Shown here: positions 2,800 through 31,235 of the stretch, piece after piece
Layout: the number at the start of each line of letters is the position of its first letter
Numbering within the stretch: the stretch's first letter is position 1
Source of the DNA: Pseudomonadota bacterium
GTDB lineage: Bacteria > Desulfobacterota > Desulfobacteria > Desulfobacterales > C00003106
Assembly: GCA_043818915.1 (NCBI GenBank)
Contig: JBDRFJ010000121.1
Span: 1-32,894, forward strand
Direction: 5' to 3'
DNA: 32,894 nt
Program-made: the position numbers and the translations under genes
Notes under the pieces: generated by a model
What the model was told of the DNA's origin: nothing
The model's database searches: none
Seen by the model: only the letters and a program-made list of their open reading frames with translations

Positions 2800-3546
2800 T
2801 TACATTGGCGCTGCAAGCAGCATCAAAAATTCCTTATTCCCTTTTGGTCCCAGAATGGGGGAGGGAACAACGCCCCGGATCTTGAGCCCCAGGTCTTGAA
2901 AAAACCGGCTCAGATTTTCAATTACCGCCTGATGTTGGCGTGGATCGCGAACGACCCCTCCCTTTCCTACAAGTCCTTTTCCTACCTCAAACTGGGGCTT
3001 TATAAGAGCGATAATAGATCCGCCGGGTTTTAAGAATTGTAAGACAGCCGGCACAACAATACGAAGTGAAATAAAGGAAACATCAATGGTCACAAGATCG
3101 ATAGGGTAAGGCAGCGCATTGGGCTCAAGGTGGCGAATATTGGTCCGTTCAAACAATGTCACCCTTGAATCCTGGCGAAGCTTCCAATCTAACTGACCGT
3201 ATCCTACGTCAACGCATGTAACCGCGGATACGCCTCTCTGTAGCAGGCAATCAGTGAAACCACCTGTTGAAGCGCCCACGTCAAGACACAGGAGGCCGGA
3301 GACATTTAGTTTGAAATGATCAAGGGCGGCCTCTAATTTGATCCCCCCGCGGCTTACATGCGGAATATCCTTGCCATGAATGGTAAGCGCGGCCCCTGCT
3401 GGAACCTTGGCGCCCACCTTGTCTATAATCTCTCCGTTTACAAATATCTTGCCGGCAAGGATCAATGCCTGTGCACGCTGCCTGCTTTTTGCCAATCCCT
3501 GTTCCACCAAGAGAAGATCGATACGCTTTTTTTCAATCAAGGCCAT
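2800..3546 (-). CDS. tlyA: TlyA-family rRNA (cytidine-2'-O)-methyltransferase (hemolysin A-like), S4 domain plus FtsJ-like methyltransferase
   Basis: An S4-like N-terminus (RIDLLLVEQGLAKSRQRAQALI) is followed by the SAM-binding motif LDVGASTGGFTDCLLQRG. Length is 248 aa. It sits downstream of dxs in the same orientation. Confidence 0.9.
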   Translation of the reverse strand: MALIEKKRIDLLLVEQGLAKSRQRAQALILAGKIFVNGEIIDKVGAKVPAGAALTIHGKDIPHVSRGGIKLEAALDHFKLNVSGLLCLDVGASTGGFTDCLLQRGVSAVTCVDVGYGQLDWKLRQDSRVTLFERTNIRHLEPNALPYPIDLVTIDVSFISLRIVVPAVLQFLKPGGSIIALIKPQFEVGKGLVGKGGVVRDPRQHQAVIENLSRFFQDLGLKIRGVVPSPILGPKGNKEFLMLLAAPM

Positions 3547-3587
3547 TATTTTATAATTATATTATCAGAAGGAAAGTGTCAAAGGTC

Positions 3588-3768
3588 GAGGATAGAGGTC
3601 AGAAGACAGAGGTCAGAGCGCCTGCGGCGGAGAGGTGAAACGAAAGAAGATGAGAAGTTGTGAAGGTGAGAAGGTGGGACTTTTCCCCAACTTCCCAGCC
3701 TCCCATCTACCCATCTTCATCAGTTCCGTTCTCTGACCTCTATTCTCTGACCTCTATTCTCTGTCCTC
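3588..3768. repeat. Long imperfect palindromic element. The arms are built from tandem GAGGTCAGA-type units around a GGGACTTTTCCCC centre. The right arm forms the last ~14 codons of dxs.
   Basis: The left arm 3588-3620 (gaggatagaggtcagaagacagaggtcagagcg) is the near-perfect reverse complement of the right arm 3729-3768 (gttctctgacctctattctctgacctctattctctgtcctc). Inner purine-rich and pyrimidine-rich segments are also roughly complementary. Confidence 0.75.
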
Positions 3769-5639
3769 AACTTCAGCGCGGCATTCACGACGGCGGCAGC
3801 ATCGATTCCATATTTTTCACGGAGTATTTTTTGGGGGCCGTGCTCTATGAATTGGTCTGGAAGGCCTATCCGGGCTACCCTTGTTCCGGTTATGCCGGAG
3901 TCCGTTAAACATTCCAGCACAGCACTTCCAAAGCCTCCTTGTATTACGTTGTCTTCAACGGTCACTATATTATGAATTCTTTGTGCCAATGAAAGTATTA
4001 ATTCAGAATCGAGCGGTTTAACAAAGCGGCTGTTTACCACGGTGGCAGAAATATTCTGTTCTGCAAGCATCTTCGCAGCATCAATAGCCGGCCCAACGGT
4101 TATACCGATTGCCAGAATCAGCACATCACTACCCTCGGTCAGAACTTCCCCCTTTCCTATGGGAAGGGACTCAATTGTCGATTTCAGCGTGACTCCGAGA
4201 CCACATCCTCTTGGATAGCGGTAGGCAATGGGACCGTCATATTCAAATGCGGTACACATCATTCTGCGCAACTCATTCTCATCCTTAGGGGCCATTACAA
4301 CCATATTCGGCATGCTTCTCAGATAGGAGAAATCAAATACGCCCTGATGTGTCGGACCGTCATCTCCCACAATTCCTCCACGGTCAACAGCAAAAATAAC
4401 CGGAATGCGTTCAAGGCAAACATCGTGCAATATTTGGTCATAAGCCCGTTGCAAGAAGGTAGAATAGATTGCCACTACAGGATGAAATCCTTCAGTAGCC
4501 ATTCCTGCGGCAAAGGTAACCCCGTGCTGCTCGGCAATGCCTACATCAAAAAAACGATCCGGGAAAAGCTCTGCGAACTCTGTTAGACCGGTCCCTTCCG
4601 GCATAGCCGCGGTGATGGCCACGATTTTTTCATTTTTTCGGGCACATGCGATCATGGTATCGCCGAAGACCTTGGTATAGGTAGGAATACGCCTTTTAGA
4701 AACACAATTGCCCGTTTTAATCTCAAAACCTCCTACGCCGTGGAAATAGGTGGGGTTTTCTTCCGCGGGGGGATAACCTTTCCCTTTCTTGGTGGTTACA
4801 TGGAGCAGAACAGGCTCTTCCATGGTTTGTATGTTGCGAAGCGTGGGAATCAGATGATCGAAACGATGCCCCTTTATAGGGCCAAGGTAATCAAAATTAA
4901 AGGCCTCAAACAATATCCCCGGCGTAAGAAAACTTTTGAACGAATCTTCTGTTCGCTTGGCCAGTTGGTACATGTTGTCGCCGACCCGTGGAAGAGACTT
5001 GAGGAAATCTCCAAAATCACGTTTTAGGTTCATGAAATGTTTGGCGGAAAGTTTCCGGCTTAAAAACGATGACAACGCCCCCACGTTTTTGGCTATAGAC
5101 ATTTCGTTGTCATTCAGTATTACGATGAGGTCCTTGTGGATATGCCCGGCCTGGTTCAGCCCTTCATAGGCGAGTCCTGCCGTCATTGATCCATCGCCGA
5201 TTACAACGATTATCTTGGAGCGGTCTTTCTTGAGACGTTTGGCACAAAGCATACCAAGTCCCGCGGAAATTGACGTGCTGCTATGGCCGGTAGAAAAGGA
5301 GTCATAGGTACTTTCGCTCATTCGGGTAAAACCGCTCAGCCCGCCATGCTGCCTTAGGGTGCTAAAACGGTCTCTTCGCCCGGTAAGTATTTTGTGTGTA
5401 TAAGACTGATGTCCTACATCCCAGATTATCTTGTCTGTTGGCGCGTCAAAGACATAATGGAGTGCAATGGTCAATTCTACCACGCCAAGGCTTGGAGCAA
5501 GATGCCCTCCGGTTCTGGAAACGGTTTTAATTATAATCTCCCGGATTTCCTGTGCCAGCAAGGGCAGTTCAGATTCATCTAATTTTTTAAGATCCTGCGG
5601 AGAATTGATTTTATCTAAGTATTTCATATCATCTGTCAT
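3720..5639 (-). CDS. dxs: 1-deoxy-D-xylulose-5-phosphate synthase
   Basis: Full-length (639 aa) transketolase-like protein with the TPP-binding region [19 protein letters not shown] and [14 protein letters not shown]. Gene order is conserved with ispA and xseB. Confidence 0.95.
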
Positions 5640-5685: not shown

Positions 5686-6576
5686 CTATCTCTTTCTTTT
5701 TATTATATACCTTGCCAGTTCCCGCAACGGTTCTCCTCTTTTATCAAAGATAGTCAAAGTCTGCAAGGCACTTGCCACCAGATCTTGCCCTTTTTCTTTT
5801 GCCTTGCTTATTCCGAGCAAAAGAGGGTAGGTGGCCTTTTCCCGGTCAAGGTCCGTACCGGTCTTTTTACCCATTCGCTCTTGTGAGCCCTCTATATTTA
5901 ATATGTCATCATATACCTGGAAGGCGAGCCCGATAAATTTTCCATATTCTGAAAGCGCCTTGATTTCATTGTTTGTACCTCCTCCAAGAATAGCTCCGCT
6001 TCTAACAGACACTTCAATAAGCGCGCCTGTTTTTAGCCTATGCATCCTTTCAAGCTCTCCAAGCCCGACATTCTTTCCCTCTGAGTCGATATCGAGCATC
6101 TGCCCCTGAATCATTCCAGCGTATCCTGCCGCTATTGCGATCAGATGGGTTGTCTGCATCCACAATAGGTGATTTGCAGAGATATATTTTGGGTCAGTAA
6201 GAATTTCAAATGCAGCCGTAAGAAGAGCGTCACCGGCAAGGATAGCCGTGGCTTCTCCGTAAACCTTGTGACTGGTCGGTTTCCCGCGCCGAAGATCGTC
6301 ATTGTCCATAGCGGGCAGGTCGTCGTGAATAAGTGAATAGGTATGAATCAATTCAAGAGCGCATGCCGCATGTATTACGTCCTCCTGGCTTCCTCCCACT
6401 GCCTCTGAGGCAGCTATGCAAAGAATAGGGCGCAGTCGTTTTCCGCCCGCCATAAGGGAATAGCGCATTGCGTTAAGCAACCAGGAGGGATCCTCCATGC
6501 TATCCCATAATCTCTCTAATTTTTCCTCGACAAGCTTACGTTTTATGCGAAGATATTCTTTAAGATCAATCGACAT
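5686..6576 (-). CDS. ispA: Farnesyl-diphosphate synthase / geranyltranstransferase
   Basis: First aspartate-rich motif LIHDDLPAMDNDDLRRGKPT and second motif YDDILN. Length is 296 aa. It overlaps xseB by 11 bp. Confidence 0.92.
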   Translation of the reverse strand: MSIDLKEYLRIKRKLVEEKLERLWDSMEDPSWLLNAMRYSLMAGGKRLRPILCIAASEAVGGSQEDVIHAACALELIHTYSLIHDDLPAMDNDDLRRGKPTSHKVYGEATAILAGDALLTAAFEILTDPKYISANHLLWMQTTHLIAIAAGYAGMIQGQMLDIDSEGKNVGLGELERMHRLKTGALIEVSVRSGAILGGGTNNEIKALSEYGKFIGLAFQVYDDILNIEGSQERMGKKTGTDLDREKATYPLLLGISKAKEKGQDLVASALQTLTIFDKRGEPLRELARYIIKRKR

Positions 6577-6808: not shown

Positions 6809-8083
6809 TTACTTCCTTTCTACTCGACAGACCATCTTCCCTCGAGCAACTATCACCTCAATCTGTTGCCCCACAGAAACAGTTTGTACATCTCTTATGA
6901 CCCTATAGTCTGGAAGTGACCTGGCAATACTGTATCCCCGGCTCAGCGTGGAAAGAGGGCTAAGGGAATCGAGCTTGCCGGCCACCGCATGAAGAATCCC
7001 TCGATGGTATTCAAGGCGCCGCTGTATGCTTTGGCAAAACCTTTCGTGCCAGAAGTTTCGCCTGTCTCCGGCTTTACGGATATCACTCGAGAATGAATAA
7101 ACAATTCTCGAGAGATTGTCGTCCACACGAAGCCGCAGGTTCTCAATCTGTTTTCCGGGATCCGACAGTCGTTTTGCAAGATGGTATATGTGCTCGCGAA
7201 GTCCGCTGATTTTATTCAAAAGGGTAATTCTAAGTGAGTCGGCCATATCGGCGGTGCGCGCTAACAAATCCGCTTTGCGCGGAACTACGAGTTCAGCTGC
7301 GGCCGAAGGAGTAGGGGCCCTCAAGTCAGCCACAAAATCAGAAATCGTGTAATCGGTTTCGTGCCCGACAGCCGAAACAACAGGAATATGAGATTTATAA
7401 ATCGCACGAGCGACCTTTTCGGTATTAAAAGGTTGGAGGTCCTCTAATGAGCCGCCGCCTCGCGCAAGGATAATCACATCAATGTCATCCCGCTTATTAA
7501 ACAATGCTAAGGCGTTTACGATCTCTTCGTCCGCGCCGTCACCCTGTACGCGCACCGGTGCGATTAATAAGGTCATGTTATCGAACCTGCGCCGCGCGAC
7601 ATTGATAATATCTCGAATGACCGCACCGGTTGGCGAGGTTACTACACCTATTTTTTCAGGCAGAACCGGAAGAGGGCGTTTATGAACCTCGTCAAAGAGT
7701 CCTTCATTTGAGAGTTTTTCCTTGAGTTGTTCAAAGGCGAGTTGAAGTGCGCCGATACCTTTTGGTTCCATAACCTCCAGAATAATCTGGTAGGCGCCTC
7801 GTGGCTCAAACACCGTGATTCTGCCCATGGCAATCACTTCCATGCCGTCTTCGGGCTGAAACTTCAGAAATCGGTTTTGACCGCGAAACATTACCGAATT
7901 GATCTGGGCCTCAGGATCTTTTAATGTGAAATAAAAATGGCCCGAGGTCGGAACACGAAAATTAGAGATTTCACCGGTGACCCAGACAAAAGGATAGGCT
8001 TCTTCCAAAAGAGACTTAATGGAGTGAGTTAGTTCGGAAACGGTATATATGCGCTGTTCCAATTGAGTGGAAAAATTGTCCAT
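6809..8083 (-). CDS. xseA: Exodeoxyribonuclease VII large subunit
   Basis: 424 aa with an OB-fold N-terminus (VWVTGEISNFRVPTSGHFYFTLKD) and a catalytic region (ARGGGSLEDLQPFN). It is first in the xseA-xseB-ispA-dxs-tlyA operon. Confidence 0.93.
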   Translation of the reverse strand: MDNFSTQLEQRIYTVSELTHSIKSLLEEAYPFVWVTGEISNFRVPTSGHFYFTLKDPEAQINSVMFRGQNRFLKFQPEDGMEVIAMGRITVFEPRGAYQIILEVMEPKGIGALQLAFEQLKEKLSNEGLFDEVHKRPLPVLPEKIGVVTSPTGAVIRDIINVARRRFDNMTLLIAPVRVQGDGADEEIVNALALFNKRDDIDVIILARGGGSLEDLQPFNTEKVARAIYKSHIPVVSAVGHETDYTISDFVADLRAPTPSAAAELVVPRKADLLARTADMADSLRITLLNKISGLREHIYHLAKRLSDPGKQIENLRLRVDDNLSRIVYSFSSDIRKAGDRRNFWHERFCQSIQRRLEYHRGILHAVAGKLDSLSPLSTLSRGYSIARSLPDYRVIRDVQTVSVGQQIEVIVARGKMVCRVERK

Positions 8084-8128
8084 TGTGGAACCGATTTATA
8101 GCACAGAGTCCGGATGACAACAATAAAG

Positions 8129-8226
8129 AAATTTAGGAATTTAGGGATTTAGGAATTGGGGATTTTTCCCCTCCGTCAAGTTCTTATAATCCTTCAATCC
8201 CCACATTCCTTAATCCCTAAATTCCT
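8129..8226. repeat. Inverted pair of the dispersed AATCCCC-AATTCCTAAATCCCT-AATT motif flanking a GGGGATTTTTCCCC centre. It lies ~45 bp upstream of the xseA start.
   Basis: 8129-8165 reads aaatttaggaatttagggatttaggaattggggatt. Its reverse complement matches 8196-8226, aatccccacattccttaatccctaaattcct. The arms are built from TTAGGGAT/TTAGGAAT 8-mers. Confidence 0.75.
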
Positions 8227-8280
8227 ATAACGTCTGATAATGTATATTATGTAAACTTTGGCCTGGATGCAATCATATCT

Positions 8281-8583
8281 TCAAATCCCCGGCTTCCCAG
8301 ATCCTGAATCACCAAATTGTTCCCCTTTCCTTTCAAGAATATTTCTGATCGCCGGTGTCAGGTATACATTATCAAGGTTCATACGGTTCAAACATGCGGC
8401 CAAAAGTTCGATTCTCCCGTCAAACGGTTCAGTCTTGTCGATGACAACAATATAGCGCCCCCCTGTTTTGCAAATTCCGCTTTTTGTGGGGGGATTTGTC
8501 GTCTTAAGGTTCCGCTCGGACACCACCACTCCGAGCTTTTCAGCCACCGAGCGCAATTCGCTATAGATCCTTTCTGGCTCCAC
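8281..8583 (-). CDS. Small hypothetical protein (100 aa), family not recognised
   Basis: A clean ORF lying 2 bp downstream of the stop codon of the upstream dGTPase-like gene on the same strand. It has no matching antisense gene. No motif recognised. Confidence 0.45.
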   Translation of the reverse strand: MEPERIYSELRSVAEKLGVVVSERNLKTTNPPTKSGICKTGGRYIVVIDKTEPFDGRIELLAACLNRMNLDNVYLTPAIRNILERKGEQFGDSGSGKPGI

Positions 8584-8585
8584 TG

Positions 8586-9809
8586 TTAAAATTCACTCCC
8601 CAGGCGCCTTGGAAACAAAAGTTTATTGCATTCCTTTAGAAAATATTCGTCTGTCATGCCGGCGATATAGTCTCTTGCAATCTCAGGGTTTGAGGTGTTC
8701 GCGCTATAGAAATCATCCATGTTGTCGAGAAAACGACGGAAGATCTTTGAATCCGCCCTTTGTTTTTCAAGACCACTTAGATATTGTTCAAACAATACTT
8801 TAAAAAGATGCTCTATCTTGCCGGAATCCGGTCTTATTTTTGAATTAAGATAAATATATTTCAGATTGAATTCCTTTAGTTTTTTAACCACTTCTGAGAC
8901 CTCCTGACTAAAGGCTGCATATGGTTGCTGAAAGCTGTTTTCAATTACGTCTTCCACTAATTTGTAGACTATAGTCCCGTTGGCATCACCCAGACGCGCA
9001 ACAACATCTCTTGGAATATCGGCTCGTTTAATTAGACCGAGGAGTATGGCATCCTCTATATCCCTCCCGATATAACTAATGGTGTCGGCTATGCGAACAA
9101 CACATCCTTCAAGGGTCATAGGAACGAGGTCAAGGTCGGGATTTGTATATTTTTCAAGAAGTTCTCGGTCAAACATCTCAAAGGTTTTCTTGTGAATCGC
9201 CTGGAGCCTGTCGCTGTGGACTTCGCCGTCATGACACATAATACCGTCCAATACCTGAAGCGACAGGTTCCACCCCTTCCCTTGTCTTTCAATTTTTTCA
9301 AGGAATCTGACACTCTGAAGGTTATGCTGAAATGGGCCGATTCCGTGCGCTACGCACAGTTTTGATAAATAGGTTTCGCCGTCGTGCCCAAATGGAGAAT
9401 GACCTATGTCATGCCCTAAGGCGATCGCCTCAATGAGGTCTTCATTCAGACCTAAGAATCGACCGATTGTTCTTGAAATCTTTGATACGAGCTGCACATG
9501 AAGAACTCTGTGAGTAATTTGATCGTTGTCTACAAGGGAGAAAACCTGGGTCTTGTCAATGTAACGGGTATAAGCGGCAGAATGAAGGATGCGGTCTGAA
9601 TCAACTGAAAATTCCTGACGATGCCCCTCTTCAATCCGCGGATCAGGGGCACGTCTCAGTGCATCCCTGCTCAGCGTGGCATGGGGTGAGAGATTTTTTT
9701 CCTCTCTGTCATTTAAATGCTTTTTTATATCTCTTAAATCAATCATAATAAATTCGTAACTACTCAGGTTGTTAGGTTCACGGTTCACGGTTGGGCTATA
9801 TGTACTCAA
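8586..9809 (-). CDS. dGTPase-like HD-domain phosphohydrolase (deoxyguanosinetriphosphate triphosphohydrolase-like)
   Basis: Carries the HD motif (ALGHDIGHSPFGHDGE) and HRVLHVQLV, with typical dGTP triphosphohydrolase-like architecture. The start may be the internal ATG at 9746 (MIDLRDIKK...), because the first ~20 codons are encoded by a palindromic repeat. Confidence 0.8.
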   Translation of the reverse strand: MSTYSPTVNREPNNLSSYEFIMIDLRDIKKHLNDREEKNLSPHATLSRDALRRAPDPRIEEGHRQEFSVDSDRILHSAAYTRYIDKTQVFSLVDNDQITHRVLHVQLVSKISRTIGRFLGLNEDLIEAIALGHDIGHSPFGHDGETYLSKLCVAHGIGPFQHNLQSVRFLEKIERQGKGWNLSLQVLDGIMCHDGEVHSDRLQAIHKKTFEMFDRELLEKYTNPDLDLVPMTLEGCVVRIADTISYIGRDIEDAILLGLIKRADIPRDVVARLGDANGTIVYKLVEDVIENSFQQPYAAFSQEVSEVVKKLKEFNLKYIYLNSKIRPDSGKIEHLFKVLFEQYLSGLEKQRADSKIFRRFLDNMDDFYSANTSNPEIARDYIAGMTDEYFLKECNKLLFPRRLGSEF

Positions 9810-9862
9810 CGTCCGGGGTGATATAAAGACCGCAGTTTAACCTTGAACCGTGAACCCGGAAC
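9775..9862. repeat. Imperfect palindromic element with tandem GGTTCACGG units in its arms
   Basis: 9775-9792 ggttcacggttcacggtt versus 9839-9862 aaccttgaaccgtgaacccggaac (reverse complement match), with a 46-bp spacer. The left arm overlaps the annotated 5' end of the dGTPase-like ORF. Confidence 0.7.
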
Positions 9863-9896
9863 TTGAAACCTGATAGGAATTACAATGGAATACATT

Positions 9897-9938
9897 CAAT
9901 TCCTCAATCCCTCAATTCGCAATCCCTAAATTTCATTT
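9897..9938. repeat. Third copy of the AATTCC..AATCCCT..AATT dispersed motif. It overlaps the stop codon of the ATP-grasp gene.
   Basis: caattcctcaatccctcaattcgcaatccctaaatttc shares the AATTCCT/AATCCCT/AAATT blocks with 8129-8226 and 30192-30223. Confidence 0.6.
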
Positions 9939-10702
9939 CTCTCAATCATCTCATCTACAAGCCGATAATAATTGATTCCAGCCTTCTTGAACCCCTTTTT
10001 TCCATACTTCATATTCGCCTCAAGTACCCAGTAGCGCCCCCCGGCAAAACATATGTCAAGACCCACGTCGTCAAAACGACACAGCCTGGCTGTGTTGAGC
10101 GCCAAATCAAGGCCTTCCTCCGGTATATTATCGAAACTGATCTCCCCTCCCAGGGATACGTTGGTACGAAAGTCGCCTTCCGGAGCGATACGCCAATATG
10201 CATGAATTATGCGATTTCCCATAATCACCACACGGAGGTCACGATCGAATTCAAGATACTCCTGGATATAGGCCACGTGCGTTAATTGGATATAATCGGC
10301 AAGTTCCTGTTTGTCACGGATCAAGTAAACGCCTTTTCCGAAAGCCGATCCCCTTGGGATTTTGCCAATGAGCGGGAATTGAAAGCGATTAAGGATACCT
10401 CCCTTTTGACGATTCCCATAGAAAAAGCGTGTCTTTGGGTGAGGAATATCCAGAAGCCGAAACAGGGTGGTCTGTTTGATCTTGTCCTGCGTAAATTTGT
10501 ATGTATGATAGGTGGGAAAAGTTCGCTTTCCTATGGTGTCGAATATGTCAGCGTAAAAAGCAGTGGGATAGTATATAACAGAAGAATTTCGTATTAATTC
10601 CTTTTCCCAATCTTTGTAATCGGAAAAATTAGGACGTACCCCGAGTGTAATGACGTTCTTGCAGCGGTTTAAACGATATTCAAGCGCAACGTTTCTTTCC
10701 AT
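9926..10702 (-). CDS. ATP-grasp family ligase (RimK/glutamate-ligase-like)
   Basis: 258 aa with an ATP-grasp fold pattern: FPLIGKIPRGSAFGKGVYLIRDKQEL, RVVIMGNRIIHAYWR, and YWVLEANMKYG near the C-terminus. Confidence 0.65.
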   Translation of the reverse strand: MERNVALEYRLNRCKNVITLGVRPNFSDYKDWEKELIRNSSVIYYPTAFYADIFDTIGKRTFPTYHTYKFTQDKIKQTTLFRLLDIPHPKTRFFYGNRQKGGILNRFQFPLIGKIPRGSAFGKGVYLIRDKQELADYIQLTHVAYIQEYLEFDRDLRVVIMGNRIIHAYWRIAPEGDFRTNVSLGGEISFDNIPEEGLDLALNTARLCRFDDVGLDICFAGGRYWVLEANMKYGKKGFKKAGINYYRLVDEMIERNEI

Positions 10703-10729: not shown

Positions 10730-12127
10730 TTACTTTTTAAAATCCTTGGGGCTCAGGTTATATTTTTTAAGTAGATTGTAAAAGTCTGCCCGATACTTTG
10801 AGGCCATCTCTGACGCCCTGGTTACATTTCCTTTGGTTAGCTCAAGCAGATTAATCAGATAACCTTTTTCGAACTCCCCCTTGGCATCTTTCAATGATTT
10901 TGGTTGCAGTTCGTTTGGGACAATGTTTTTATGCGGCAAAACATCTTCTTCTGTAATTACATTCTTTGTGTTCATTGCAACCGCATATTCAATAGTATTT
11001 ACCAGCTCCCGTACGTTTCCGGGCCAATCATGAAGCATCAGTTTCTGAATAGCTCCCGGTGTAATGTCGGAGATATCTTTTTTCATCTCTTTGCTGTATT
11101 TTTTCAAAAAATGTTTAGCTAAAGCCGGTATATCTTCCTTTCTTTCCCTCAGCGGAGGCAGACAAATAGGAATAACATGTATTCGATAAAAGAGGTCTTC
11201 TCTAAAAAGTCCGTTTTTTACCTCTTTTACAAGGTCCTTATTGGTTGCCACAATCAATCTTGCATCTACATCTACTGGTTTTTCCGCCCCTACCGGATGG
11301 AACTGGTGGACCTCTAATACTCTTAACAGCTTTGCCTGAAGAGAGGGAGACATCTCCCCGACTTCATCAAGAAACATTGTCCCACCGTGAGCCTGTTCAA
11401 AGAGTCCACGCTTATTTCGAACAGCGTTAGTAAATGCCCCTTTTTTATAGCCAAAGAGTTCGCTTTCAAGGAGAGTATCGGGTATGGCGGCACAGTTTAC
11501 AGCCACAAAAGGGTCTTCCTTTCTGTGACTGCTCAAATGGATTGCTTTGGCGATCAACTCTTTTCCTGTACCGCTTTCACCATGCAGATAGATGGTAGAA
11601 TCGGTCTGCGCAATGCGGGCCACCTGCTGGAGCACATTCCGCATTTTCTCGCTTCGGGTCACGATATTTTTAAAATCATACTTTTCCTCGAGGCTACCCT
11701 CCAGTATCTTAATTTCTACAGCCAGCTTGCGTTTTTCCAGCGCTTTTTCGATATGAGAAAGGAGGTCCCGCGCATCAAACGGTTTTAAGAGGTAGCTGTA
11801 AGCCCCTCTTTTCATTGCATCTACCGCATTTTCAACACTGCCATGAGCGGTGAGAATGATAACCGGAAGATCCGGATTTATCGCATGAAGCTCCTCCATT
11901 AAACTGATCCCATCCGTACGCATCAATTTCAAGTCGACAATTGCGAGGTTAAAAACATGCTTTTGGGCAAGCTCAAGCGCCGCGTCTTCCTTCTGTGATA
12001 TTACGGCTTCATATTTTGCCGCCTCTATCCTTGTTTTCAACAGTTCGAGAAGGTTCTTATCGTCATCCACGATTAAAATTTTTCCAAGCGACATATTACT
12101 CAGTCCATTCTTTTTTCTTTTTTTCAA
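10730..12127 (-). CDS. Sigma-54-dependent response regulator (NtrC family: REC plus AAA+ sigma-54 activation plus Fis-type HTH)
   Basis: Receiver region (ILIVDDDKNLLELL...VDLKLMRTDG), Walker A (GESGTGKE), the GAFTNA motif (sigma-54 GAFTGA equivalent), and a C-terminal HTH (GNVTRASEMASKY). Its start overlaps the end of the upstream TPR gene. Confidence 0.93.
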   Translation of the reverse strand: MKKRKKNGLSNMSLGKILIVDDDKNLLELLKTRIEAAKYEAVISQKEDAALELAQKHVFNLAIVDLKLMRTDGISLMEELHAINPDLPVIILTAHGSVENAVDAMKRGAYSYLLKPFDARDLLSHIEKALEKRKLAVEIKILEGSLEEKYDFKNIVTRSEKMRNVLQQVARIAQTDSTIYLHGESGTGKELIAKAIHLSSHRKEDPFVAVNCAAIPDTLLESELFGYKKGAFTNAVRNKRGLFEQAHGGTMFLDEVGEMSPSLQAKLLRVLEVHQFHPVGAEKPVDVDARLIVATNKDLVKEVKNGLFREDLFYRIHVIPICLPPLRERKEDIPALAKHFLKKYSKEMKKDISDITPGAIQKLMLHDWPGNVRELVNTIEYAVAMNTKNVITEEDVLPHKNIVPNELQPKSLKDAKGEFEKGYLINLLELTKGNVTRASEMASKYRADFYNLLKKYNLSPKDFKK

Positions 12128-12908
12128 GTTCGATATCGACCTGTTTCATCTTCTCAAGAATTTCCAGTACTCCTATCCATATTTTTGCCCGTTCCACCAT
12201 CGGACTTTTTGGATGGTTTGACACAAGCTCTTTGAAGTAGCCAAGAGATTTTTCATAATCTCTCTTTGCGTTCCCATAATGCGAATATACTAATCCTAAC
12301 ACAAAAAGGGCCTCATCTTTTGGCGAATCCTCTCCGGTCAAATCAAGAATTTTTTGGCTTTCCGCTATGGCCCTTTCATAGTCTTCCCGGCCTAAAAGCT
12401 CTTCGGCATGATCAAGAAATCCCCCTATCTGTTCCTCGTATCCAAGAGGTTTCTCAAATTTTCTTTTCTTTGTTTTTTCAATTAGTTGAAGTGTATCTAT
12501 CCATATCCTGGACTCCTCGACCAAAAGACTTTTAGGATAATCTGATACGACCTTTCTGAAATAGGCAAGAGATTTTTCATAGTCTTTTTTTGCCTTTCCA
12601 TAATGTGCATAGATCAATCCCAAGGTGAACAGAGCCTTGTCTCCCGGCGATTTATCGCCTGCTAAATCCAGTGATCGTTGGCTCTCCTGTGCCGCCTTTT
12701 CAAAATCGCCCTGTTCCAGAAGTGTCTCCGCACGGGAAAGATGCTCATACGCGCTCCACATGTTTTGTAAGCCCGCGCATGTGGCGCATCCGGAAAAAGT
12801 AAGCAGAATCAAACCGGCAAGGTAAAAGTAAACGTGCTTCCTTGACCCTTCTTGCTTTTTGCCCATATCTTCCCTCCATGGACATTTATAATATTTTTTG
12901 CTATACAA
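12096..12908 (-). CDS. TPR-like lipoprotein with an internal ~100-aa tandem duplication. The probable start is 12866.
   Basis: Lipobox LLTFSGC follows MGKKQEG (second Met). Two near-identical modules occur: DKALFTLGLIYAHYGKAKKDYEKSLAYFRKVVSDYPKS and DEALFVLGLVYSHYGNAKRDYEKSLGYFKELVSNHPKS. It sits between the kinase and the sigma-54 regulator and overlaps both. Confidence 0.75.
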   Translation of the reverse strand: MYSKKYYKCPWREDMGKKQEGSRKHVYFYLAGLILLTFSGCATCAGLQNMWSAYEHLSRAETLLEQGDFEKAAQESQRSLDLAGDKSPGDKALFTLGLIYAHYGKAKKDYEKSLAYFRKVVSDYPKSLLVEESRIWIDTLQLIEKTKKRKFEKPLGYEEQIGGFLDHAEELLGREDYERAIAESQKILDLTGEDSPKDEALFVLGLVYSHYGNAKRDYEKSLGYFKELVSNHPKSPMVERAKIWIGVLEILEKMKQVDIELEKKKKEWTE

Positions 12909-14254
12909 AGTCCTAAACCTGTACCTTCTCTTTTTTTATGATCTTTTATTGATACCTGCTGAAATTTATCGAATATGGAAAATAATTTTTTCTCTGGTAT
13001 GCCAGGCCCTGTGTCAGCTACCGAAACAGTCACCTCATTGTCTGCAGAGTCCGCGCTTACCAATATCTTTCCGCCTTCCGGGGTAAATTTAATCGCGTTG
13101 CCAAGCAAGTTTCTTAATACATGAAGAATACGTTCACGGTTTATATTCACCTCCGGCAATATTCCGGAGATTTTTCCTGTAATCTGTATCTTTTTCCCTT
13201 CTACAAGTGGCTCTGTTTCAAATATTACCTGATTAACAAGTGGGGCAATACTCATTATTTCGAAATCTTCCGGCATCATACCCGCCTCAATTTTTGACAG
13301 ATCGAGGAGAGAATTGACAGAGCGTATCAAACGGTTACTTTCTTCACCGATAATAGTCAAAAGTCTTTTTTGCTTATCTGAAACATTCCCCCCTACCCCT
13401 TCTAATAATAAATTAGTCCCCTCTCTTATCGATGTCAGCGGTGTACGAAGGTCGTGAGAAACATGGGATAAAAAATCGGCCTTCATTTGATCTAACTTTT
13501 TCAGCTTGGCACACATAAAATTAAAAGAAGTTGCCAAATCATTTACTTCAGGCGGAGATGACAAGTCTAAATATCCGTCAAACACCCCGCTTTGAGCTAT
13601 TTTTTTAGTCCGATCTTTCAATAAAGAAAGGGGCTTATTGATACTCTTGGTAATTATCAAAGAAATGAAGAGTCCGACAATCAACGTGGTTATTGTCATA
13701 ACCAAAGACATCTCAGCGGCCCTTTTGCCGGTCGCCTCCAGGATCTTCATTTTCCCGTCGATATTAGCTTGTGTATAAGTATTTAATTCTTTTAAAATAT
13801 CTATTACGCTATTAATATACTCCTGTTTTTCTTCTTTATAAGAAATTCCTGAAAGGTTTTTCCCCTCGTTCAGATATTGCACCTCTTTTTCAAAAAGAGA
13901 AAGATACTCGGAGTGGAATTCCTTTATTCGCCCTATCAAAGCGCCTTGATCCGAGTTAGAATCATAAGAGAGCCCTGAAAGATATCGGACAAAATCCTGT
14001 TTTGCTATCTGAAATTGTTTATAAAAACTTTCGTCTCTCGTGAGAAGATACTTATTTTCATATCGGATCTGGGATAACAATGAGTCTCTAATCTTAGTTA
14101 CATCATTTATCGCAACATTGTCCACGTTAAGGATAAGATGTGTAAGATTGTTGAGACGGTACAGCTGGTAAATCGTATACGTGCTCAAAGCCACAACAAG
14201 CAAAAAAATACTCAGGTAGCCAAGAACAAGACGCTGAAAAATCGTAAGTTTCAT
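12809..14254 (-). CDS. Sensor histidine kinase (periplasmic sensor, HAMP, HisKA, HATPase_c)
   Basis: Two TM segments flank a ~150-aa periplasmic domain. H-box FLSHVSHDLRTPL, N-box LRNLLGNAIKF, and G-boxes DTGPGIP and GTGLGL. Confidence 0.92.
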   Translation of the reverse strand: MKLTIFQRLVLGYLSIFLLVVALSTYTIYQLYRLNNLTHLILNVDNVAINDVTKIRDSLLSQIRYENKYLLTRDESFYKQFQIAKQDFVRYLSGLSYDSNSDQGALIGRIKEFHSEYLSLFEKEVQYLNEGKNLSGISYKEEKQEYINSVIDILKELNTYTQANIDGKMKILEATGKRAAEMSLVMTITTLIVGLFISLIITKSINKPLSLLKDRTKKIAQSGVFDGYLDLSSPPEVNDLATSFNFMCAKLKKLDQMKADFLSHVSHDLRTPLTSIREGTNLLLEGVGGNVSDKQKRLLTIIGEESNRLIRSVNSLLDLSKIEAGMMPEDFEIMSIAPLVNQVIFETEPLVEGKKIQITGKISGILPEVNINRERILHVLRNLLGNAIKFTPEGGKILVSADSADNEVTVSVADTGPGIPEKKLFSIFDKFQQVSIKDHKKREGTGLGLCIAKNIINVHGGKIWAKSKKGQGSTFTFTLPV

Positions 14255-14368
14255 CAGTTGATGGTTTCGTAAAAAGTCTTTTGAAACTGCCTCTTTTGAG
14301 AGTTGAAAAACCTTACTTGTACGTTACAGTATACATTTAGAAGATACAACTATTTTTTGTATGGTGTT

Positions 14369-14533
14369 TTATGAGGCTGTCCGAGAATTCTGATCCTACT
14401 GCAAAAGAGTGAGAAACGGCCCAAATTCCCGCAAGTTTTCGTCAAATAGGCCTGCTATTCTCCTCAAATTTGCGAAAATTTGGGCCGTTTCTCACTCTTT
14501 TTCGTTACGGACATAATTCTCGGACAGCCTCAT
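14369..14533. repeat. 165-bp near-perfect palindrome (65-bp arms, 35-bp spacer), a MITE-like or structured-RNA element in the intergenic region upstream of the kinase operon
   Basis: Left arm 14369-14433 (tatgaggctgtccgagaattctgatcctactgcaaaagagtgagaaacggcccaaattcccgcaa) versus the reverse complement of 14469-14533. The arms share identical 20-nt and 25-nt blocks and are flanked by TA. Confidence 0.8.
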
Positions 14534-14584
14534 AGCGCTGAAATTTGGTAGCTTGTGAGTTCAATCTTGAGAACCTTCTCGGGT

Positions 14585-15754
14585 TCATCTTATACTTTCA
14601 AGATAGGCAAGATCCTGGTCCTGGGTGTTTTTCGTGCCAATGGCCACTATTTTGGTATTCGGTTGATCATCCTGTTGGAAATAAATTCTTCCTGAATAAG
14701 AAAAGTCCACCTCCAGAATATTCATTTTTCCGCCTTTGCCGAATACCCTTCTTTTGACAGATACAAGAGAGACGTCTTCATTGAGCCTGTGTATAATCTC
14801 TTCAGCTTTGAGCTGAAATTCATTGGTGAGTGACAGAAACCCCATAATGGCCCGCTCAGTAAAGACTAAATTTTTATAAAGTGCTTTAAATCTCTTGCCG
14901 GTAGTTTCAACTTTTTTCTTCTTTTTCTTTGGCTTTTGGAGTTTTCCTTTCAAACGACCCAATTCTTCCCTTAATTCCAGCACCTCATATTCAGTTGCTT
15001 CCTTCACGTCTTTTTGGGTATCTAACCCTTCCTCCAGTTTTTCAATCTCTTCCAACAATGCGTCAACATCTTTTGAAAGATCTGTTTTCTCTTTCTTAAG
15101 ACCCGCGATCCTTGTTAAGTAGTCGACCTGGTTGGCTTTCACAGCTTTTAGTCCGTTCTCAGTCTTGCGCAACCGCCTGGTAAGACCCCGAATGACCGTT
15201 TCGTGTTTTGCTTCTTGTCTCTCTGTTTCTCTAATCCCCTTTTTTATAAACCTTTGGACGATTAAGACAAAAATCAAGACGTAAAAAACTATGACGCTGC
15301 TCGACAACAACCCGTAATATTTGATCTCAACATTAACGAGGAGTGTCAGGCCTTCGTTTAAAATTTTGTAGTTTTCCACACTGACTTCCACGTAATTAAG
15401 ATTTTCAGCCTGAAATTCCGAGAAACCGTCTGTTCCCTGGAAGTTTTTGTGATCCATTTCAAACTGGCTTGGATAGAGTATGCGATCATCTTTTGTCTTT
15501 ACCAGTATGTCTATTTTGACACCCAGTTTGTATTTAAGGCATCGGCTTAAATATTCCTCTATATTCCTGTTGATTTCTTCCTTGACTGTGTATCGACCTT
15601 CATAAAGGGCCTCGTCGTTCTGGATAAGGATCTGATTGAGTTGAGATTCCTCATGATTATGAAAGTAGTTTTCCAATACCTGGAGCGTCAGGATATAGCA
15701 TATGGGAGGCAGTAGAATGCTAACCAACAATATTTTGAGGGGAAAACGTTTCAC
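14585..15754 (-). CDS. Hypothetical bitopic membrane protein: two TM segments flank a periplasmic domain, followed by a cytoplasmic coiled coil with a poly-lysine tract
   Basis: TM1 ILLVSILLPPICYIL and TM2 LLSSSVIVFYVLIFVLIV. The coiled-coil region (LEEIEKLEEGLDTQKDVKEATEYEVLELREELGRLKGKLQKPKKKKKKV) precedes a C-terminal ~100-aa domain. No catalytic motif recognised. Confidence 0.55.
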   Translation of the reverse strand: MKRFPLKILLVSILLPPICYILTLQVLENYFHNHEESQLNQILIQNDEALYEGRYTVKEEINRNIEEYLSRCLKYKLGVKIDILVKTKDDRILYPSQFEMDHKNFQGTDGFSEFQAENLNYVEVSVENYKILNEGLTLLVNVEIKYYGLLSSSVIVFYVLIFVLIVQRFIKKGIRETERQEAKHETVIRGLTRRLRKTENGLKAVKANQVDYLTRIAGLKKEKTDLSKDVDALLEEIEKLEEGLDTQKDVKEATEYEVLELREELGRLKGKLQKPKKKKKKVETTGKRFKALYKNLVFTERAIMGFLSLTNEFQLKAEEIIHRLNEDVSLVSVKRRVFGKGGKMNILEVDFSYSGRIYFQQDDQPNTKIVAIGTKNTQDQDLAYLESIR

Positions 15755-25548: not shown

Positions 25549-26039
25549 TTTTTGGTTTCCTGCTAGAATTCGTGCCTACTTAACACCCGAGGCACATCGC
25601 CAGACGTGTCATCTCATCGGATGCGGCCTCGTATGTCTCAAACTTGCCAAGCCTTAATGTCCAGTGAACTAGGGCAATTCCACAGATCCTGTCCCGGCAA
25701 GTAATTCACAGGATGCATATTCCGAGGCAAGTTCAGCATACCTGATCGGTGTGGCGACAGACAATCGCCTGTCGACCACAAATCCGAATAGGATAAGTCA
25801 CCTTTTGGGCCTGATCTTTCTATCGTCTTCTATTGCTTGAAACTAAAGAAATGTGCGAATCTAGCGTGCTGCCAACATATTTCTATGTCATAGTGAGATT
25901 TAAACGTCAAAAGAGTGACTAGGGTTATTTGAGCATTCCGCGTTAGGGACTGAGGGTTGAGAAGGTAATGGCCTCGTGAACTAACAGTTTATCGCACACT
26001 CAAGATCGGGAATGCTCTCATGACATTTCACAAATTGTC

Positions 26040-27407
26040 CTATGTACGGGGCGCAAGCTGATCATTTGACTTAGATTGTACCTTGGCCATATCCGAAAAT
26101 ATCTGCTTGAAATGCCTAGCTACAGATAATCGAGCTTCCTTGTTATAAACCCTCATGTAAATATCCAAAACCCCGGCTTCGAGTTCATCAATTGTTAGGT
26201 GTTTCGGAGCATAGTTCACATCTAAAAACGTATACTTATCCCACGAGGATTCCAACAGTCTCTTCTCCGCTGTCAACCTTTCTCTTAATCTAGTCCCCGG
26301 CAATGGTGTTGGAACAGTGATTTGAGATGCGTAAAGGTTAGTATCAAGAATAAAGTTTGCCACATCATTGAAAACGGAACTCTTGTCGTTATCGAACCCC
26401 ACAAGGAAGGCACCCATTATCCCTATTCCATGTGACTGAATCCTTTGGATAAGCATCGGATAGTCTTTCACCCGGCGCCTTTTCCAATCGTTCTTACTTA
26501 GTCCCTTCAAGTTATCCTCATTAATGCTTTCAAATCCTATTAACAGGATGGTGCAGCCACTTCGTCTCAATTTTTCCAAAAACTTCTCATCATAGCCAAC
26601 GGACACGTCAGTCGATGCCGCCCATCTTATTTTAAGTGGTTCAATCCTATCTAATAGATCATTCGCATATTTCTTGTTAAAAAAAATATTGTCATCTGCG
26701 AAATTAATTTGATAATTACCCCACGTATCTATAACATAATCTATTTCTCTCATTACTTGGTCTATCGACTTATGCCTGTACTTTAAGCCAAAAACCTTGG
26801 ATGCTGCACAAAACTCACAATCATGTGGACAACCTCTACTCGTTTGTATCCACACCATCTTATAGTGCTCAATATCCAGCAAATCGTATCTTGGAACTGG
26901 AGAGTTTCTTAAATTAAAATAGCTGGCAGATTTATAGCATCGTTTCAGCCTCCCGTCTTCTACATCCTTAAGTACAGTACTCCATATAGTTTCTACCTCA
27001 CCGATCACTACACTGTCTGCATGCTCAACCGCTTCCTCTGGCATTAGGGTGGGGTGAATGCCGCCAACAATGACCTTGCAATCCCGCTGTCTGAATTTAT
27101 CCGCTAAGTAATACGCTCTGGTCGCTGTTTGGGTTATCGCACTAATACAGACTAAGTCATATTTTTCCTTGAAATCCACCTGCTCAATATTCTCGTCAAT
27201 CAGGCTTATTTCGTGTTCTTCAGGGGTCAGTGCCGCTATTATCAAAAGGCCCAGACTGAAACCGGACCAAAAGTCAAGCCGTGTTGATAATACAGTGTGC
27301 TTGTCTGCATCCCGAACATTGTTCCAGAATTTTTTATACTTTTCGTTCTTGCTGAAGAACGTTCCTTTTGGATTTATAAGAGCTATCTTCATCTGTCTTC
27401 CCCTCAT
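26040..27407 (-). CDS. B12-binding-domain radical SAM enzyme (class B rSAM). The probable start is the Met at 27392.
   Basis: An N-terminal cobalamin-binding Rossmann-like domain (MKIALINPKG...KVIVGGIHPT) precedes the radical-SAM cluster motif SRGCPHDCEFC (CxxxCxxC). Length is about 450 aa. Confidence 0.85.
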   Translation of the reverse strand: MRGRQMKIALINPKGTFFSKNEKYKKFWNNVRDADKHTVLSTRLDFWSGFSLGLLIIAALTPEEHEISLIDENIEQVDFKEKYDLVCISAITQTATRAYYLADKFRQRDCKVIVGGIHPTLMPEEAVEHADSVVIGEVETIWSTVLKDVEDGRLKRCYKSASYFNLRNSPVPRYDLLDIEHYKMVWIQTSRGCPHDCEFCAASKVFGLKYRHKSIDQVMREIDYVIDTWGNYQINFADDNIFFNKKYANDLLDRIEPLKIRWAASTDVSVGYDEKFLEKLRRSGCTILLIGFESINEDNLKGLSKNDWKRRRVKDYPMLIQRIQSHGIGIMGAFLVGFDNDKSSVFNDVANFILDTNLYASQITVPTPLPGTRLRERLTAEKRLLESSWDKYTFLDVNYAPKHLTIDELEAGVLDIYMRVYNKEARLSVARHFKQIFSDMAKVQSKSNDQLAPRT

Positions 27408-29055: not shown

Positions 29056-30158
29056 AATAATATTCTATCCTGAGGAGTTATAAATTGCGCATCAAGGCAA
29101 AATTTAAAAATAGTATGCAAGAGCTTTCTATCTATTTGGGGCCATTCAAATCCATTTTTCTTTAAGATATTCATGGCCCTTCTGTTGTCATATTTCACTC
29201 CATTATGATTAAAGTATGGTATATACGGCTCCAACAGTAGTCTTCGAGCACCTTTCAGTGTGCTCATATCAAAATTCTCCAAAGGTATCCTCTCTGGATC
29301 AGGGTAGCCGAAAAAATCACTCGCGGTTTTAAAGATGAAATCTCCTGTCACATCATGGGTATTGGTCAAATGAAATGTCTCGTTACAAGGGTGGGTGTGG
29401 GCATGAATTCGATATATCGCGTCTGCTACTGAGTCTACTGGTATAAGATTATAGTTGACGCCCCCGTCGGCTGGAATTTGCTTGTAAATTCCTAAAGAAA
29501 AAATGTGGATCGGTTGATATATCACTCTGAAGTTTATCGCATAACCATCTTGAGAATCACCCACGATAGCACTTGGCCTGAAAATATTCACGTTAAGGCC
29601 CTTCGTCCTATACGCGTGGACGAGTTGTTCAGCCTCAAATTTCGTTTGTTCATAGGTGTTCTTAAAATACTGCCCCTTATCTAAAGAATCTTCATAGAAT
29701 GTGCCGTGATACGCTCCGGCGACGGCAACGGTACTGATGTGGTTCACGGACTCAAATGATCCGTTCTTGAGACATTGCAATGCAAAATCAAGGATGTTTT
29801 TTGTCCCTTCTACATTTATCTTCTTTATTCTTTCATACGATACATTAAACTGAGCAAGAGCTGCGCTGTGAAAGATAACAGTAACCTCTCGTGAGAGCCT
29901 TTCTGCATGTTTTTTGCTCAAGCCGAAATCCGGACTTGTTATACTCCCCTCGACAATCTCCACCCGAGGCCTTATCCTGTGGTATTCAGCCTCACTATAT
30001 CGTTCTTTTAATAATCTCTCTACTCTTTGAGGAGCAGAAAGACTTCCCTGCCGCCTCACTAATAGAATCACTTTGACATCTTTATCTTGAAGAAAGCGCC
30101 TGACGAGATAAAATCCCAAAAAGCCAGTGCCACCCGTTATAAGTACTTTTTTACTCAT
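29052..30158 (-). CDS. Thioester-reductase-type SDR (NAD_binding_4 / 'male sterility' family; acyl-thioester to aldehyde/alcohol reductase)
   Basis: N-terminal KVLITGGTGFLGFYLV (TGxxGxxG), a catalytic YEQTK (YxxxK), and an extended C-terminal substrate domain. Length is 368 aa. It overlaps the ANL gene by 4 bp. Confidence 0.8.
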   Translation of the reverse strand: MSKKVLITGGTGFLGFYLVRRFLQDKDVKVILLVRRQGSLSAPQRVERLLKERYSEAEYHRIRPRVEIVEGSITSPDFGLSKKHAERLSREVTVIFHSAALAQFNVSYERIKKINVEGTKNILDFALQCLKNGSFESVNHISTVAVAGAYHGTFYEDSLDKGQYFKNTYEQTKFEAEQLVHAYRTKGLNVNIFRPSAIVGDSQDGYAINFRVIYQPIHIFSLGIYKQIPADGGVNYNLIPVDSVADAIYRIHAHTHPCNETFHLTNTHDVTGDFIFKTASDFFGYPDPERIPLENFDMSTLKGARRLLLEPYIPYFNHNGVKYDNRRAMNILKKNGFEWPQIDRKLLHTIFKFCLDAQFITPQDRILL

Positions 30159-30191
30159 GATATATCTTTATTGCTTTGTAATCCACAATTG

Positions 30192-30223
30192 CTCAATTCC
30201 CCAATTCCTAAATCCCTCAATTT
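30192..30223. repeat. Fourth copy of the dispersed motif (ctcaattccccaattcctaaatccctcaattt), between the PilZ-ACP gene and the reductase gene
   Basis: Near-identical to the reverse complement of 8129-8165 and to 8196-8226 (AATCCCCAATTCCTAAATCCCTnAATT core). Confidence 0.7.
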
Positions 30224-30226
30224 CTT

Positions 30227-31018: not shown

Positions 31019-31235
31019 TTATATTTGGCAATATTCTTGTATGTGCCTATGGGAGCTATTTTCAGATATTATTCTCGAGACAAACGGTAAGAATACAGGA
31101 AAGAAACGTGAAAAACGCTATATCAAAATTCAAATGTGATACTTTTTTATATCCCCCCTCACCCTTTCAGCCATCGTAGCCAAGGTTACTAGGGCTGAAA
31201 GAGGAGGGGAAGAAATATGACTTTTTACGTAGTCA

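Follow-up and report, generated by a model that had tools for sequence, protein, structure and literature searches.

Tandem octamer arrays at gene boundaries of a Desulfobacterales contig, probable remnants of an intervening-sequence-like cassette

Why does one short motif recur at the boundaries of unrelated operons in contig JBDRFJ010000121.1 (assembly GCA_043818915.1), a 32,894-nt stretch of a Desulfobacterales genome, hereafter the window? An earlier note on this DNA had described four copies of a dispersed ~30-bp motif, two of them inverted upstream of xseA, and had read them either as a repeat of the repetitive extragenic palindrome/bacterial interspersed mosaic element (REP/BIME) type or as a protein-binding site. 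Here we report that the copies are tandem arrays of an 8-bp unit, that such arrays recur in many other genomes, and that in several loci they bracket a gene for a four-helix-bundle protein of the kind found in the intervening sequences (IVSs) of 23S rRNA genes. With a probability of about two in three, the window copies are gene-less or half-decayed terminal inverted repeats of an IVS-like S23p cassette, and probably selfish or near-neutral passengers.

Octamer arrays in the window and in other genomes

All four copies are present at, or within a few bases of, the positions first reported (arrays A to D, Table 1). They do form one repeat family, but the ~30-bp motif is not a fixed word. The true form of every copy is a tandem array of the unit AATYCCYN, with four to six units each, and Tandem Repeats Finder gives a period of 8 (also 15-16) at 8130-8165, 8190-8226, 9896-9932 and 30182-30222. 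Arms are called G-type (NAGGRATT) or C-type (AATYCCTN) below. By inspection the pattern AATTCCTNAATCCCTNAATT fits copies A, C and D, and copy B with one mismatch. The 27-mer of the earlier note, with up to three mismatches allowed, has two matches in the window against 0.00 expected (100 shuffles). A unit-chain detector returns the four arrays and one weak 3-unit match on the minus strand, at 31404-31437, inside the FadL open reading frame (ORF). This last match is most likely due to chance, because shuffles yield about 0.3 such matches per window.

All four arrays of the window are located at gene boundaries. Arrays A and B constitute a complete inverted pair without a gene, placed between a dif-like site and the xseA start (8083). 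On the gene-sense (minus) strand, B is the 5′ G-type arm and A the 3′ C-type arm. A repeat finder pairs 8134-8161 with 8200-8227 (28-nt arms, 89% complementary) and groups the copies as one family. Folded as RNA, the pair reaches -48.8 kcal/mol (z = -4.7), a value equalled by none of 200 shuffles, which bears out the hairpin proposed for this site. Copies C and D fold no better than shuffles. Array C is a G-type arm on the sense strand, with the TAG stop codon of the RimK-type ATP-grasp gene (9926-9928) inside it. A remnant unit of its lost partner arm pairs with 9898-9904 across the loop GAATGTATTCCATTGT. As a G-type arm on the sense strand without a partner, array D takes up the spacer of 68 nt that separates the PilZ-ACP and NAD_binding_4 reductase genes, starting 5 nt past the TAG stop of the former (30227-30229) and ending 21 nt ahead of the ATG of the latter (30158), a start codon without a Shine-Dalgarno (SD) sequence of its own. 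A search of the window with Rfam gave nothing at gathering score, and the matches obtained at relaxed thresholds, plant miRNA-precursor hairpins far below threshold, were discarded as spurious. No rRNA was found in the window.

In the species-representative genome collection, the 20-mer core AATTCCTNAATCCCTNAATT has at least 118 matching stretches. Complete chromosomes, for example CP070694.1, CP070746.1 and CAWGGE010000001.1, are among the carriers of the motif. The family statistics given here were taken from these loci, among the matches listed, together with the window. By record titles, about 100 of the loci belong to Thermodesulfobacteriota-type lineages (Desulfobacterales, Desulfobacteraceae, Syntrophobacterales, Desulfomonilaceae, Desulfatiglandales or 'delta proteobacterium' metagenome-assembled genomes, MAGs). 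The remainder include two Scalindua MAGs, another Planctomycetota MAG, one Nitrospiraceae MAG and some low-coverage contigs that are possibly misbinned. BLAST matches between the window and the motif loci are confined to the arrays. Arrays of at least three units number 223, compared to 7 in shuffles (814 kb), and only 13 of the 223 lie inside crudely called ORFs (94% intergenic) though 83% of the sequence is coding. The motif therefore recurs in other genomes well beyond the four copies, and its description as a dispersed repeat of gene boundaries holds for the family as for the window.

The consensus over 1106 units is A.98 A.97 T.92 Y(T.62/C.36) C.95 C.86 Y(T.76/C.21) N, in which positions 1-3 and 5-6 hardly vary, pyrimidines occupy positions 4 and 7, and position 8 is free. 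Arrays most often hold 4 units (~32 bp), and the longest exceed 20. Among all tandem repeats of the motif loci, periods 7 and 8 dominate. Array density is about 9 per Mb in shuffled sequence and 12 per Mb in 720 kb of unrelated, dif-selected metagenome contigs, against 42 per Mb in the flanks of motif loci and 120 per Mb in the window; across the sampled sequence it ranges from 42 to 350 per Mb.

The arrangement of the arrays follows strict rules. About half of them are arranged as inverted pairs whose gaps measure -4 to 82 nt, and all 53 pairs have the polarity 5′-(NAGGRATT)n...(AATYCCTN)n-3′, which is identical on both strands. A general rule by which the 5′ arm of any hairpin is G-rich was rejected, as the other hairpins of the motif loci show such an arm only about 2:1 (21 versus 10). 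The strict polarity is thus particular to the octamer family. An orientation bias relative to genes, raised as a possibility in the earlier note, is also evident: 34 of 47 pairs lie between co-directional genes, 12 between convergent genes and a single one between divergent genes, whereas divergent spacers make up 18% of the background. Near-absent between divergent genes, the pairs are therefore elements of gene 3′ ends, and they hug stop codons. Where a solo array lies between co-directional genes, its sense-strand type is G rather than C in a ratio of 34:15. These G-type arrays begin at a median of 12 nt past the upstream stop codon, a rule to which copies C and D conform. Many pairs are nested in outer arms of another unit, for example (CAGGTGT)n/(ACACCTG)n, and the flanks of most pairs are free of T-runs.

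Comparison with relatives shows how the sites evolve. The closest relative, Desulfobacterales MAG CSMAG_2399 (L119), is syntenic over the whole stretch, with an xseA 90% identical, and carries five arrays in 14 kb. Upstream of its xseA lies the orthologous hairpin, with fewer units and with different bases at the free (N) positions. A complete pair of G-arm, loop GAATGTATTCCATTGT and C-arm lies at 6367-6461, between the ATP-grasp and HD genes of L119. In the window, this slot still holds the G-arm and the loop, but of the C-arm a single unit. Since the ortholog holds a complete pair, copy C is a decayed one. Another tandem-unit hairpin of the window, (GGTTCAC)n...(GTGAACC)n at 9775-9792 and 9838-9870, occupies the place of the C-type octamer arm of L119. 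The further relative L120 (79% identical) has no array in 11.6 kb; its xseA slot contains unrelated sequence, another short-unit array and, of the octamers, only the remnant ATCCCTAAATTT. Among relatives with 79-90% identity, slots turn over whole. The elements persist at a site for long, yet they are mutable and replaceable.

A four-helix-bundle gene between the arms

All-versus-all clustering of 678 ORFs from the motif loci was used to seek a recurrent neighbour of the arrays. The large clusters represent common protein families (histidine kinases, ABC ATPases, aconitase, FeoB and others) and were rejected as associated factors. One cluster comprises five proteins of ~124 aa from five loci, each encoded at most 300 bp from an array. 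The protein matches PF05635 '23S rRNA-intervening sequence protein' (1.3e-24), TIGR02436 'four helix bundle protein' (1.5e-29) and PDB entry 2GSC, the structure of Xanthomonas S23p. Four of the five members are bracketed, with a G-type array running up to the ATG and a C-type array past the stop codon. The fifth is truncated by the contig end, so that only the C-arm is visible. A sixth, frameshifted copy of the gene is present in locus L091.

The same arrangement was found when loci were chosen by the protein alone. This search yielded more than 6000 homologues at E <= 1e-10; identity is 74% or more throughout the top 120, many of which lie on contigs of 500-1000 bp. The homologue loci L242 (Olavius Delta 1 symbiont), L246, L253, L254-256, L258 and L260 are all bracketed; the C-arm lies past the stop codon and the G-arm ends at the ATG, except in L254-256, where it ends ~30 nt upstream. 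With orthologous loci counted once, the bracket is observed in all nine distinct flanking-gene contexts, five of them first found by protein alone. In every context the gene and the host gene upstream of it share one orientation, and the G-arm begins at or just past the host stop codon. Where the G-arm ends at the ATG, as in most contexts, GAGGG is located 4-5 nt upstream of that ATG. Loci L254, L255 and L256 represent one locus in three samples (bases about 470-600). They are otherwise near-identical, and their G-arms contain 12, 7 and 9 units respectively, which is direct evidence of slippage-type copy-number variation. For the full cassette of L253 (1160-1615), the minimum free energy and the centroid structures both contain a terminal stem of G-arm and C-arm. 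With a subfamily hidden Markov model, no distant PF05635 members accompanied by other unit families were found in the 1.6 Mb examined.

The motif is also borne by 25 IMG/VR viral contigs (L261-L285), mostly as gene-less hairpins of the usual polarity and often just upstream of an SD sequence and start codon. The four-helix-bundle gene is on none of the 25. Phages may be vectors for the elements, or may merely be colonised by them.

In related loci, the full-length form of the cassette runs in sense orientation from the host stop codon through the G-type arm, the ATG, the ~124-aa PF05635/TIGR02436 gene and its stop codon to the C-type arm. The window holds the gene-less form, as one complete pair (A and B), one pair minus its C-type arm (9875-9932) and one solo G-arm (D). 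This form is much commoner than the gene-bearing cassette. Upon read-through from the upstream gene, the arms would anneal into an imperfect RNA duplex of ~30 bp. If rRNA IVSs are a guide, this duplex would be cut by RNase III, and the transcript would be severed or destabilised there. The G-type units, each with an SD-like AGGA/GAGG, may act as the ribosome-binding leader of the cassette gene. Gene-less copies would be passengers at gene 3′ ends, with incidental effects on their neighbours at most, and are probably not dedicated regulators of xseA or of the candidate A/T/R cluster.

Several observations weigh against such an origin. The four-helix-bundle gene is absent from the window, from L119 and from the listed motif loci beyond the six mentioned, and membership of one sequence family is all that ties the window copies to the cassette. 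Of 53 gene-less pairs, only 4 keep the ORF start ATGAATT at the inner end of an arm. Inspection of the pair flanks, which was not systematic, revealed no target-site duplications. Arms are no more complementary to their own partner than to arms from other genomes (0.74 versus 0.77 ungapped identity), and G.U is not in excess over A.C on the sense strand (57 versus 48). There is thus no covariation support for a selected RNA helix; the capacity of the arms to pair stems from the family consensus. Finally, the gene-less hairpins may be deletion derivatives of the cassette, or the gene may be cargo inserted into hairpins.

Surroundings of the arrays in the window

The genes near the copies are almost all on the minus strand, and the gene labels of the earlier note agree with Pfam (Table 1). 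For the HD-domain gene, the ATG near 9743 is the probable start and not the TTG at 9809.

Table 1. Octamer arrays, dif-like site and neighbouring genes of the window.
Feature	Position	Strand	Description
Array A	8126..8165	-	five 8-bp units, minus strand: AAATCCCC AATTCCTA AATCCCTA AATTCCTA AATTTCTT
Array B	8188..8227	+	five units: AATCCTTC AATCCCCAC ATTCCTT AATCCCTA AATTCCTA
Inverted pair A+B	8126..8227	.	complete, gene-less hairpin; loop 8166-8187
Remnant unit of the partner arm of C	9875..9881	-	AGGAATT on the plus strand
Array C	9898..9932	+	four units; G-type arm on the sense (minus) strand
Array D	30180..30226	+	six units; solo G-type arm on the sense (minus) strand
dif-like Xer recombination site	8230..8257	+	ACGTCTGATAATGTATATTATGTAAACT; 2 bp from array B; outside the octamer family
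xseA	6809-8083	-	Pfam
100-aa ORF	8281-8583		no Pfam assignment
HD/dGTPase-like gene	8586 to about 9743		Pfam
RimK-type ATP-grasp gene	9926-10702		Pfam
sigma-54 response regulator	10730-12127		Pfam
AMP-binding enzyme	27565-29055		Pfam
NAD_binding_4 reductase	29052-30158		Pfam
PilZ-PP-binding (PilZ-ACP) protein	30227-31018	-	Pfam
FadL-type porin	31236-32561	-	Pfam

The inverted pair A+B had been placed over the xseA promoter. This location is unproven: no sigma-70 or terminator consensus was seen there, and a scan for intrinsic terminators (GC-rich stem plus T-tract) gave 0 sites at 8000-8320. A conserved block beside the hairpin was considered as an xseA promoter or operator and rejected, as it matches dif and is found on at least 120 unrelated contigs with different flanks. 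The block, a dif-like Xer recombination site, is identical to Bacillus subtilis dif at 23 of 28 positions and to Escherichia coli dif at 20 of 28, with 19 of 21 core positions in both cases. The flanks of the metagenome contigs that match its core are unrelated (xseA, mobA-like, tRNA-Gly, mazG and GGDEF gene ends), which is what a site present once per genome would show. In L119 and L120, too, the site is conserved ahead of xseA. There is no switch of gene orientation at the site, and the GC skew over 33 kb is uninformative.

Another long composite hairpin is located at 3578-3768, between dxs (3720-5639) and the ORF 2800-3546, with its 3′ arm overlapping the dxs stop codon. Its arms are tandem repeats, GAGGTCAGAGAATA outside and AGAAGGTG inside, the 5′ arm being purine-rich and the 3′ arm pyrimidine-rich. 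The architecture is octamer-like and the unit family different. The likeness previously noted between the centres of the two hairpins (GGGGATTTTTCCCC and GGGACTTTTCCCC) is confined to their innermost stems; the hairpins agree in architecture and differ in sequence family. The L119 slot contains an unrelated hairpin with the centre GACGTAGCGCGGCTACGCC, which resembles the Geobacter GRCGTAGCGCTGCTACGCC family (PMC2700814).

Further repeats were noticed elsewhere in the window. A MITE-like (miniature inverted-repeat transposable element) inverted repeat at 14370-14534, with 80-nt arms that are 81% complementary and a 5-nt gap, lies between the genes 12809-14254 and 14585-15754; only a 38-nt piece of it matches L119. 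The sequence GATGGTTTCGTAAAAAGTC, close by at 14258-14278, also occurs at the 5′ end of a repeated element of ~140 bp, GATGGYTTCGTAAAAAGTCAAAACTTC ... AATTCCTTAATCCCTAAATTCCTTAATCC ATGTAAAAAGGACTTTTTACATGGGCATCA, present in L027 (2560-2700), in L038 (5190-5340) and in about 10 other loci (L009, L049, L050, L053, L056, L058, L086, L089, L111). This element has sharp boundaries, one octamer array and a strong terminal hairpin. It is multi-copy in MAG CSMAG_1163 and present in several other MAGs, and contains no ORF and no Rfam match. The 490 nt at 25549-26039, between a gene of 1175 aa and the gene 26040-27407, are without a long ORF, have no Rfam match at gathering score and match nothing in the loci compared. 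An imperfect 34-nt inverted repeat, CCCCCTCACCCTTTCAGCC ... GGCTGAAAGAGGAGGGG, occupies 31148-31217 in the FadL/PilZ-ACP spacer, downstream of the FadL stop codon; it has no matches elsewhere in the sequence compared.

Other readings, known systems and implications

In the main rival reading, the arrays are DNA sites for an abundant DNA-binding protein, a nucleoid-associated protein or global regulator and possibly the protein of the cassette itself, with one protomer per 8-bp unit and inverted arrays assembling a symmetric complex. Ribbon-helix-helix proteins bind such arrays, as MetJ does with its 8-bp metboxes and omega with its 7-bp heptads, direct or converging. The conservation of the unit across orders while position 8 stays free, the peak of array size at 4 units and the strict orientation of the pairs all agree with such sites. 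So, to some extent, does the behaviour of the arms as independent samples of the consensus, without co-evolution, and similar inverted pairs of Geobacter metallireducens have been annotated as putative sites of integration host factor (IHF) or HU (PMC2700814). However, the pairs shun divergent promoter regions and hug stop codons, which fits transcript-level or passenger elements better than operators. Moreover, the number of units varies between near-identical populations, arrays vanish from orthologous slots, and no candidate binding protein recurs beside gene-less copies among the 678 ORFs. We regard DNA sites as unlikely. The notion of a conserved protein-binding site reused across operons, and with it a regulatory link to the A/T/R cluster, is left without support: the copy in that cluster, D, is a solo arm, and copy C a decayed pair.

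It is also improbable that G-type arrays are translation elements, in which SD-like AGGA/GAGG runs would capture ribosomes for standby or re-initiation and copy D would serve the reductase of the A/T/R cluster. The position of the G-arm and its GAGGG before the cassette ATG, the sense-strand bias of co-directional solo arrays and the place of copy D shortly ahead of a start codon that lacks its own SD sequence are what such elements would show. Nevertheless, many arrays lie hundreds of bases from any start codon, C-type arrays are found as well, ahead of genes with an SD sequence of their own, and the bias is explained equally well if G-arms simply adjoin the upstream stop codon.

The REP/BIME reading, that is, extragenic palindromes (REPINs) spread by REP-associated tyrosine transposases (RAYTs) and serving as mRNA stabilisers or terminators, captures part of the picture. 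The octamer arrays are dispersed, extragenic, frequent in the sampled sequence, hairpin-forming and biased to 3′ ends, and they occur in mosaics with other modules such as the outer arms mentioned above. The unit itself, however, does not fit: it is non-palindromic, a single copy is a direct tandem array and not an imperfect palindrome, and C and D do not fold. REP families are usually specific to a species or genus, whereas the octamer family spans several orders and phage contigs and is not private to a lineage. The linked RAYT envisaged earlier was not seen near the arrays either. No Y1/RAYT-like or other transposase-like cluster recurs among the 678 neighbouring ORFs (these cover the motif loci, not whole genomes), the bracketed gene encodes a four-helix-bundle protein, and the 8.1-kb pair has no stem-plus-T-tract terminator in its vicinity. 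This makes a REP/BIME origin very improbable. Last, a chance similarity of low-complexity AT/C-rich sequence without common origin, for which one could cite the shortness of the copies and the absence of a significant fold in C and D, is refuted by the counts in shuffles, the strict 8-bp register and polarity, the orthologous conservation in L119 and the phylum-restricted recurrence.

The system closest to the proposed cassette is the rRNA IVS. The 428-nt IVS of Coxiella has terminal inverted repeats whose pairing gives a stem of 28 bp that RNase III cuts. Inside lies an S23p ORF, directly upstream of which are GACAGAT heptamers whose number varies between strains (PMC4990558). Like rRNA IVSs of the Coxiella, Leptospira and Xanthomonas type (PMC4990558), the cassette has terminal inverted repeats, a long stem, an ORF of ~120 aa belonging to PF05635 and, before its start, purine-rich short tandem repeats in variable number. 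Both are in sense orientation inside the host transcript, a presumed one for the cassette, and gene-less short forms exist in both. Unlike rRNA IVSs, the cassette is found in spacers between protein genes and not in helix 25 or 45 of 23S rRNA, its unit is 8 nt and not 7, and its arrays reach more than 20 units. It is present in apparently many copies per genome, mostly gene-less, and one arm sequence is common to several Thermodesulfobacteriota orders and some phage contigs. RNase III excision is a feature of rRNA IVSs and would extend to the octamer cassette by analogy.

Other repeat families share fewer features. The class 1-3 sites of G. metallireducens, described as putative global regulator (IHF/HU) sites by Aklujkar et al. 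2009 (PMC2700814), are likewise inverted pairs of 3-5 tandem 7-9-nt repeats at variable distance, intergenic, with dozens per genome, in the former Deltaproteobacteria. Their units (GTTGCTYN, TCTCCGTS[Y] and MTYCTGA) differ from AATYCCYN; the sites were described as unique to one species, and no link to a four-helix-bundle gene was reported (PMC2700814). The short tandemly repeated repetitive (STRR) sequences of cyanobacteria and the TAACTGA arrays of Beggiatoaceae resemble the octamers in being intergenic, often near starts, and spread over distant lineages without an evident transfer mechanism. They have a period of 7, no inverted-pair rule and no bracketed gene (PMC4679880); in BOGUAY, 169 TAACTGA sets are direct against one indirect (PMC4679880). 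MITEs, like the gene-less copies, are short and non-coding, with inverted ends related to those of a gene-bearing version. The octamer elements differ from them in that the gene-bearing form has no recognisable transposase, no target-site duplication is evident on inspection and the array ends vary in length. Literature searches on the unit sequences and on repeats of Desulfobacterota gave no description of AATYCCYN arrays, or of their link to PF05635 genes, and the family-level link seems to be undescribed.

S23p/TIGR02436 proteins constitute a very large family, the subfamily studied here alone having more than 6000 close homologues, and IVSs have been an unexplained curiosity since their discovery (PMC4990558). 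Their mobility, and a role of the ORF in supplying it, are cited as hypotheses (PMC4990558). It is conceivable, and we propose it tentatively, that the S23p/TIGR02436 gene and its octamer arms form an autonomous, unrecognised class of mobile cassette, for which rRNA would be one landing site among others and which would settle at the 3′ ends of ordinary genes. The protein would recognise the units, as RNA or DNA, and aid spread or processing. Hundreds of gene-less hairpins in Thermodesulfobacteriota and their phages would derive from such cassettes, and the Geobacter sites would be the same phenomenon with other units. Short-read assemblies are broken by the arrays. If ordinary intergenic spacers of this environmentally dominant phylum do hold the IVS architecture in many, mostly gene-less copies, the many natural variants would allow the roles of protein and arms to be tested, and such conspicuous motifs upstream of operons should be annotated with caution, as they would probably be passengers and not operators. 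It would also give a concrete origin to unexplained intergenic repeats, including the putative regulator sites of Geobacter.

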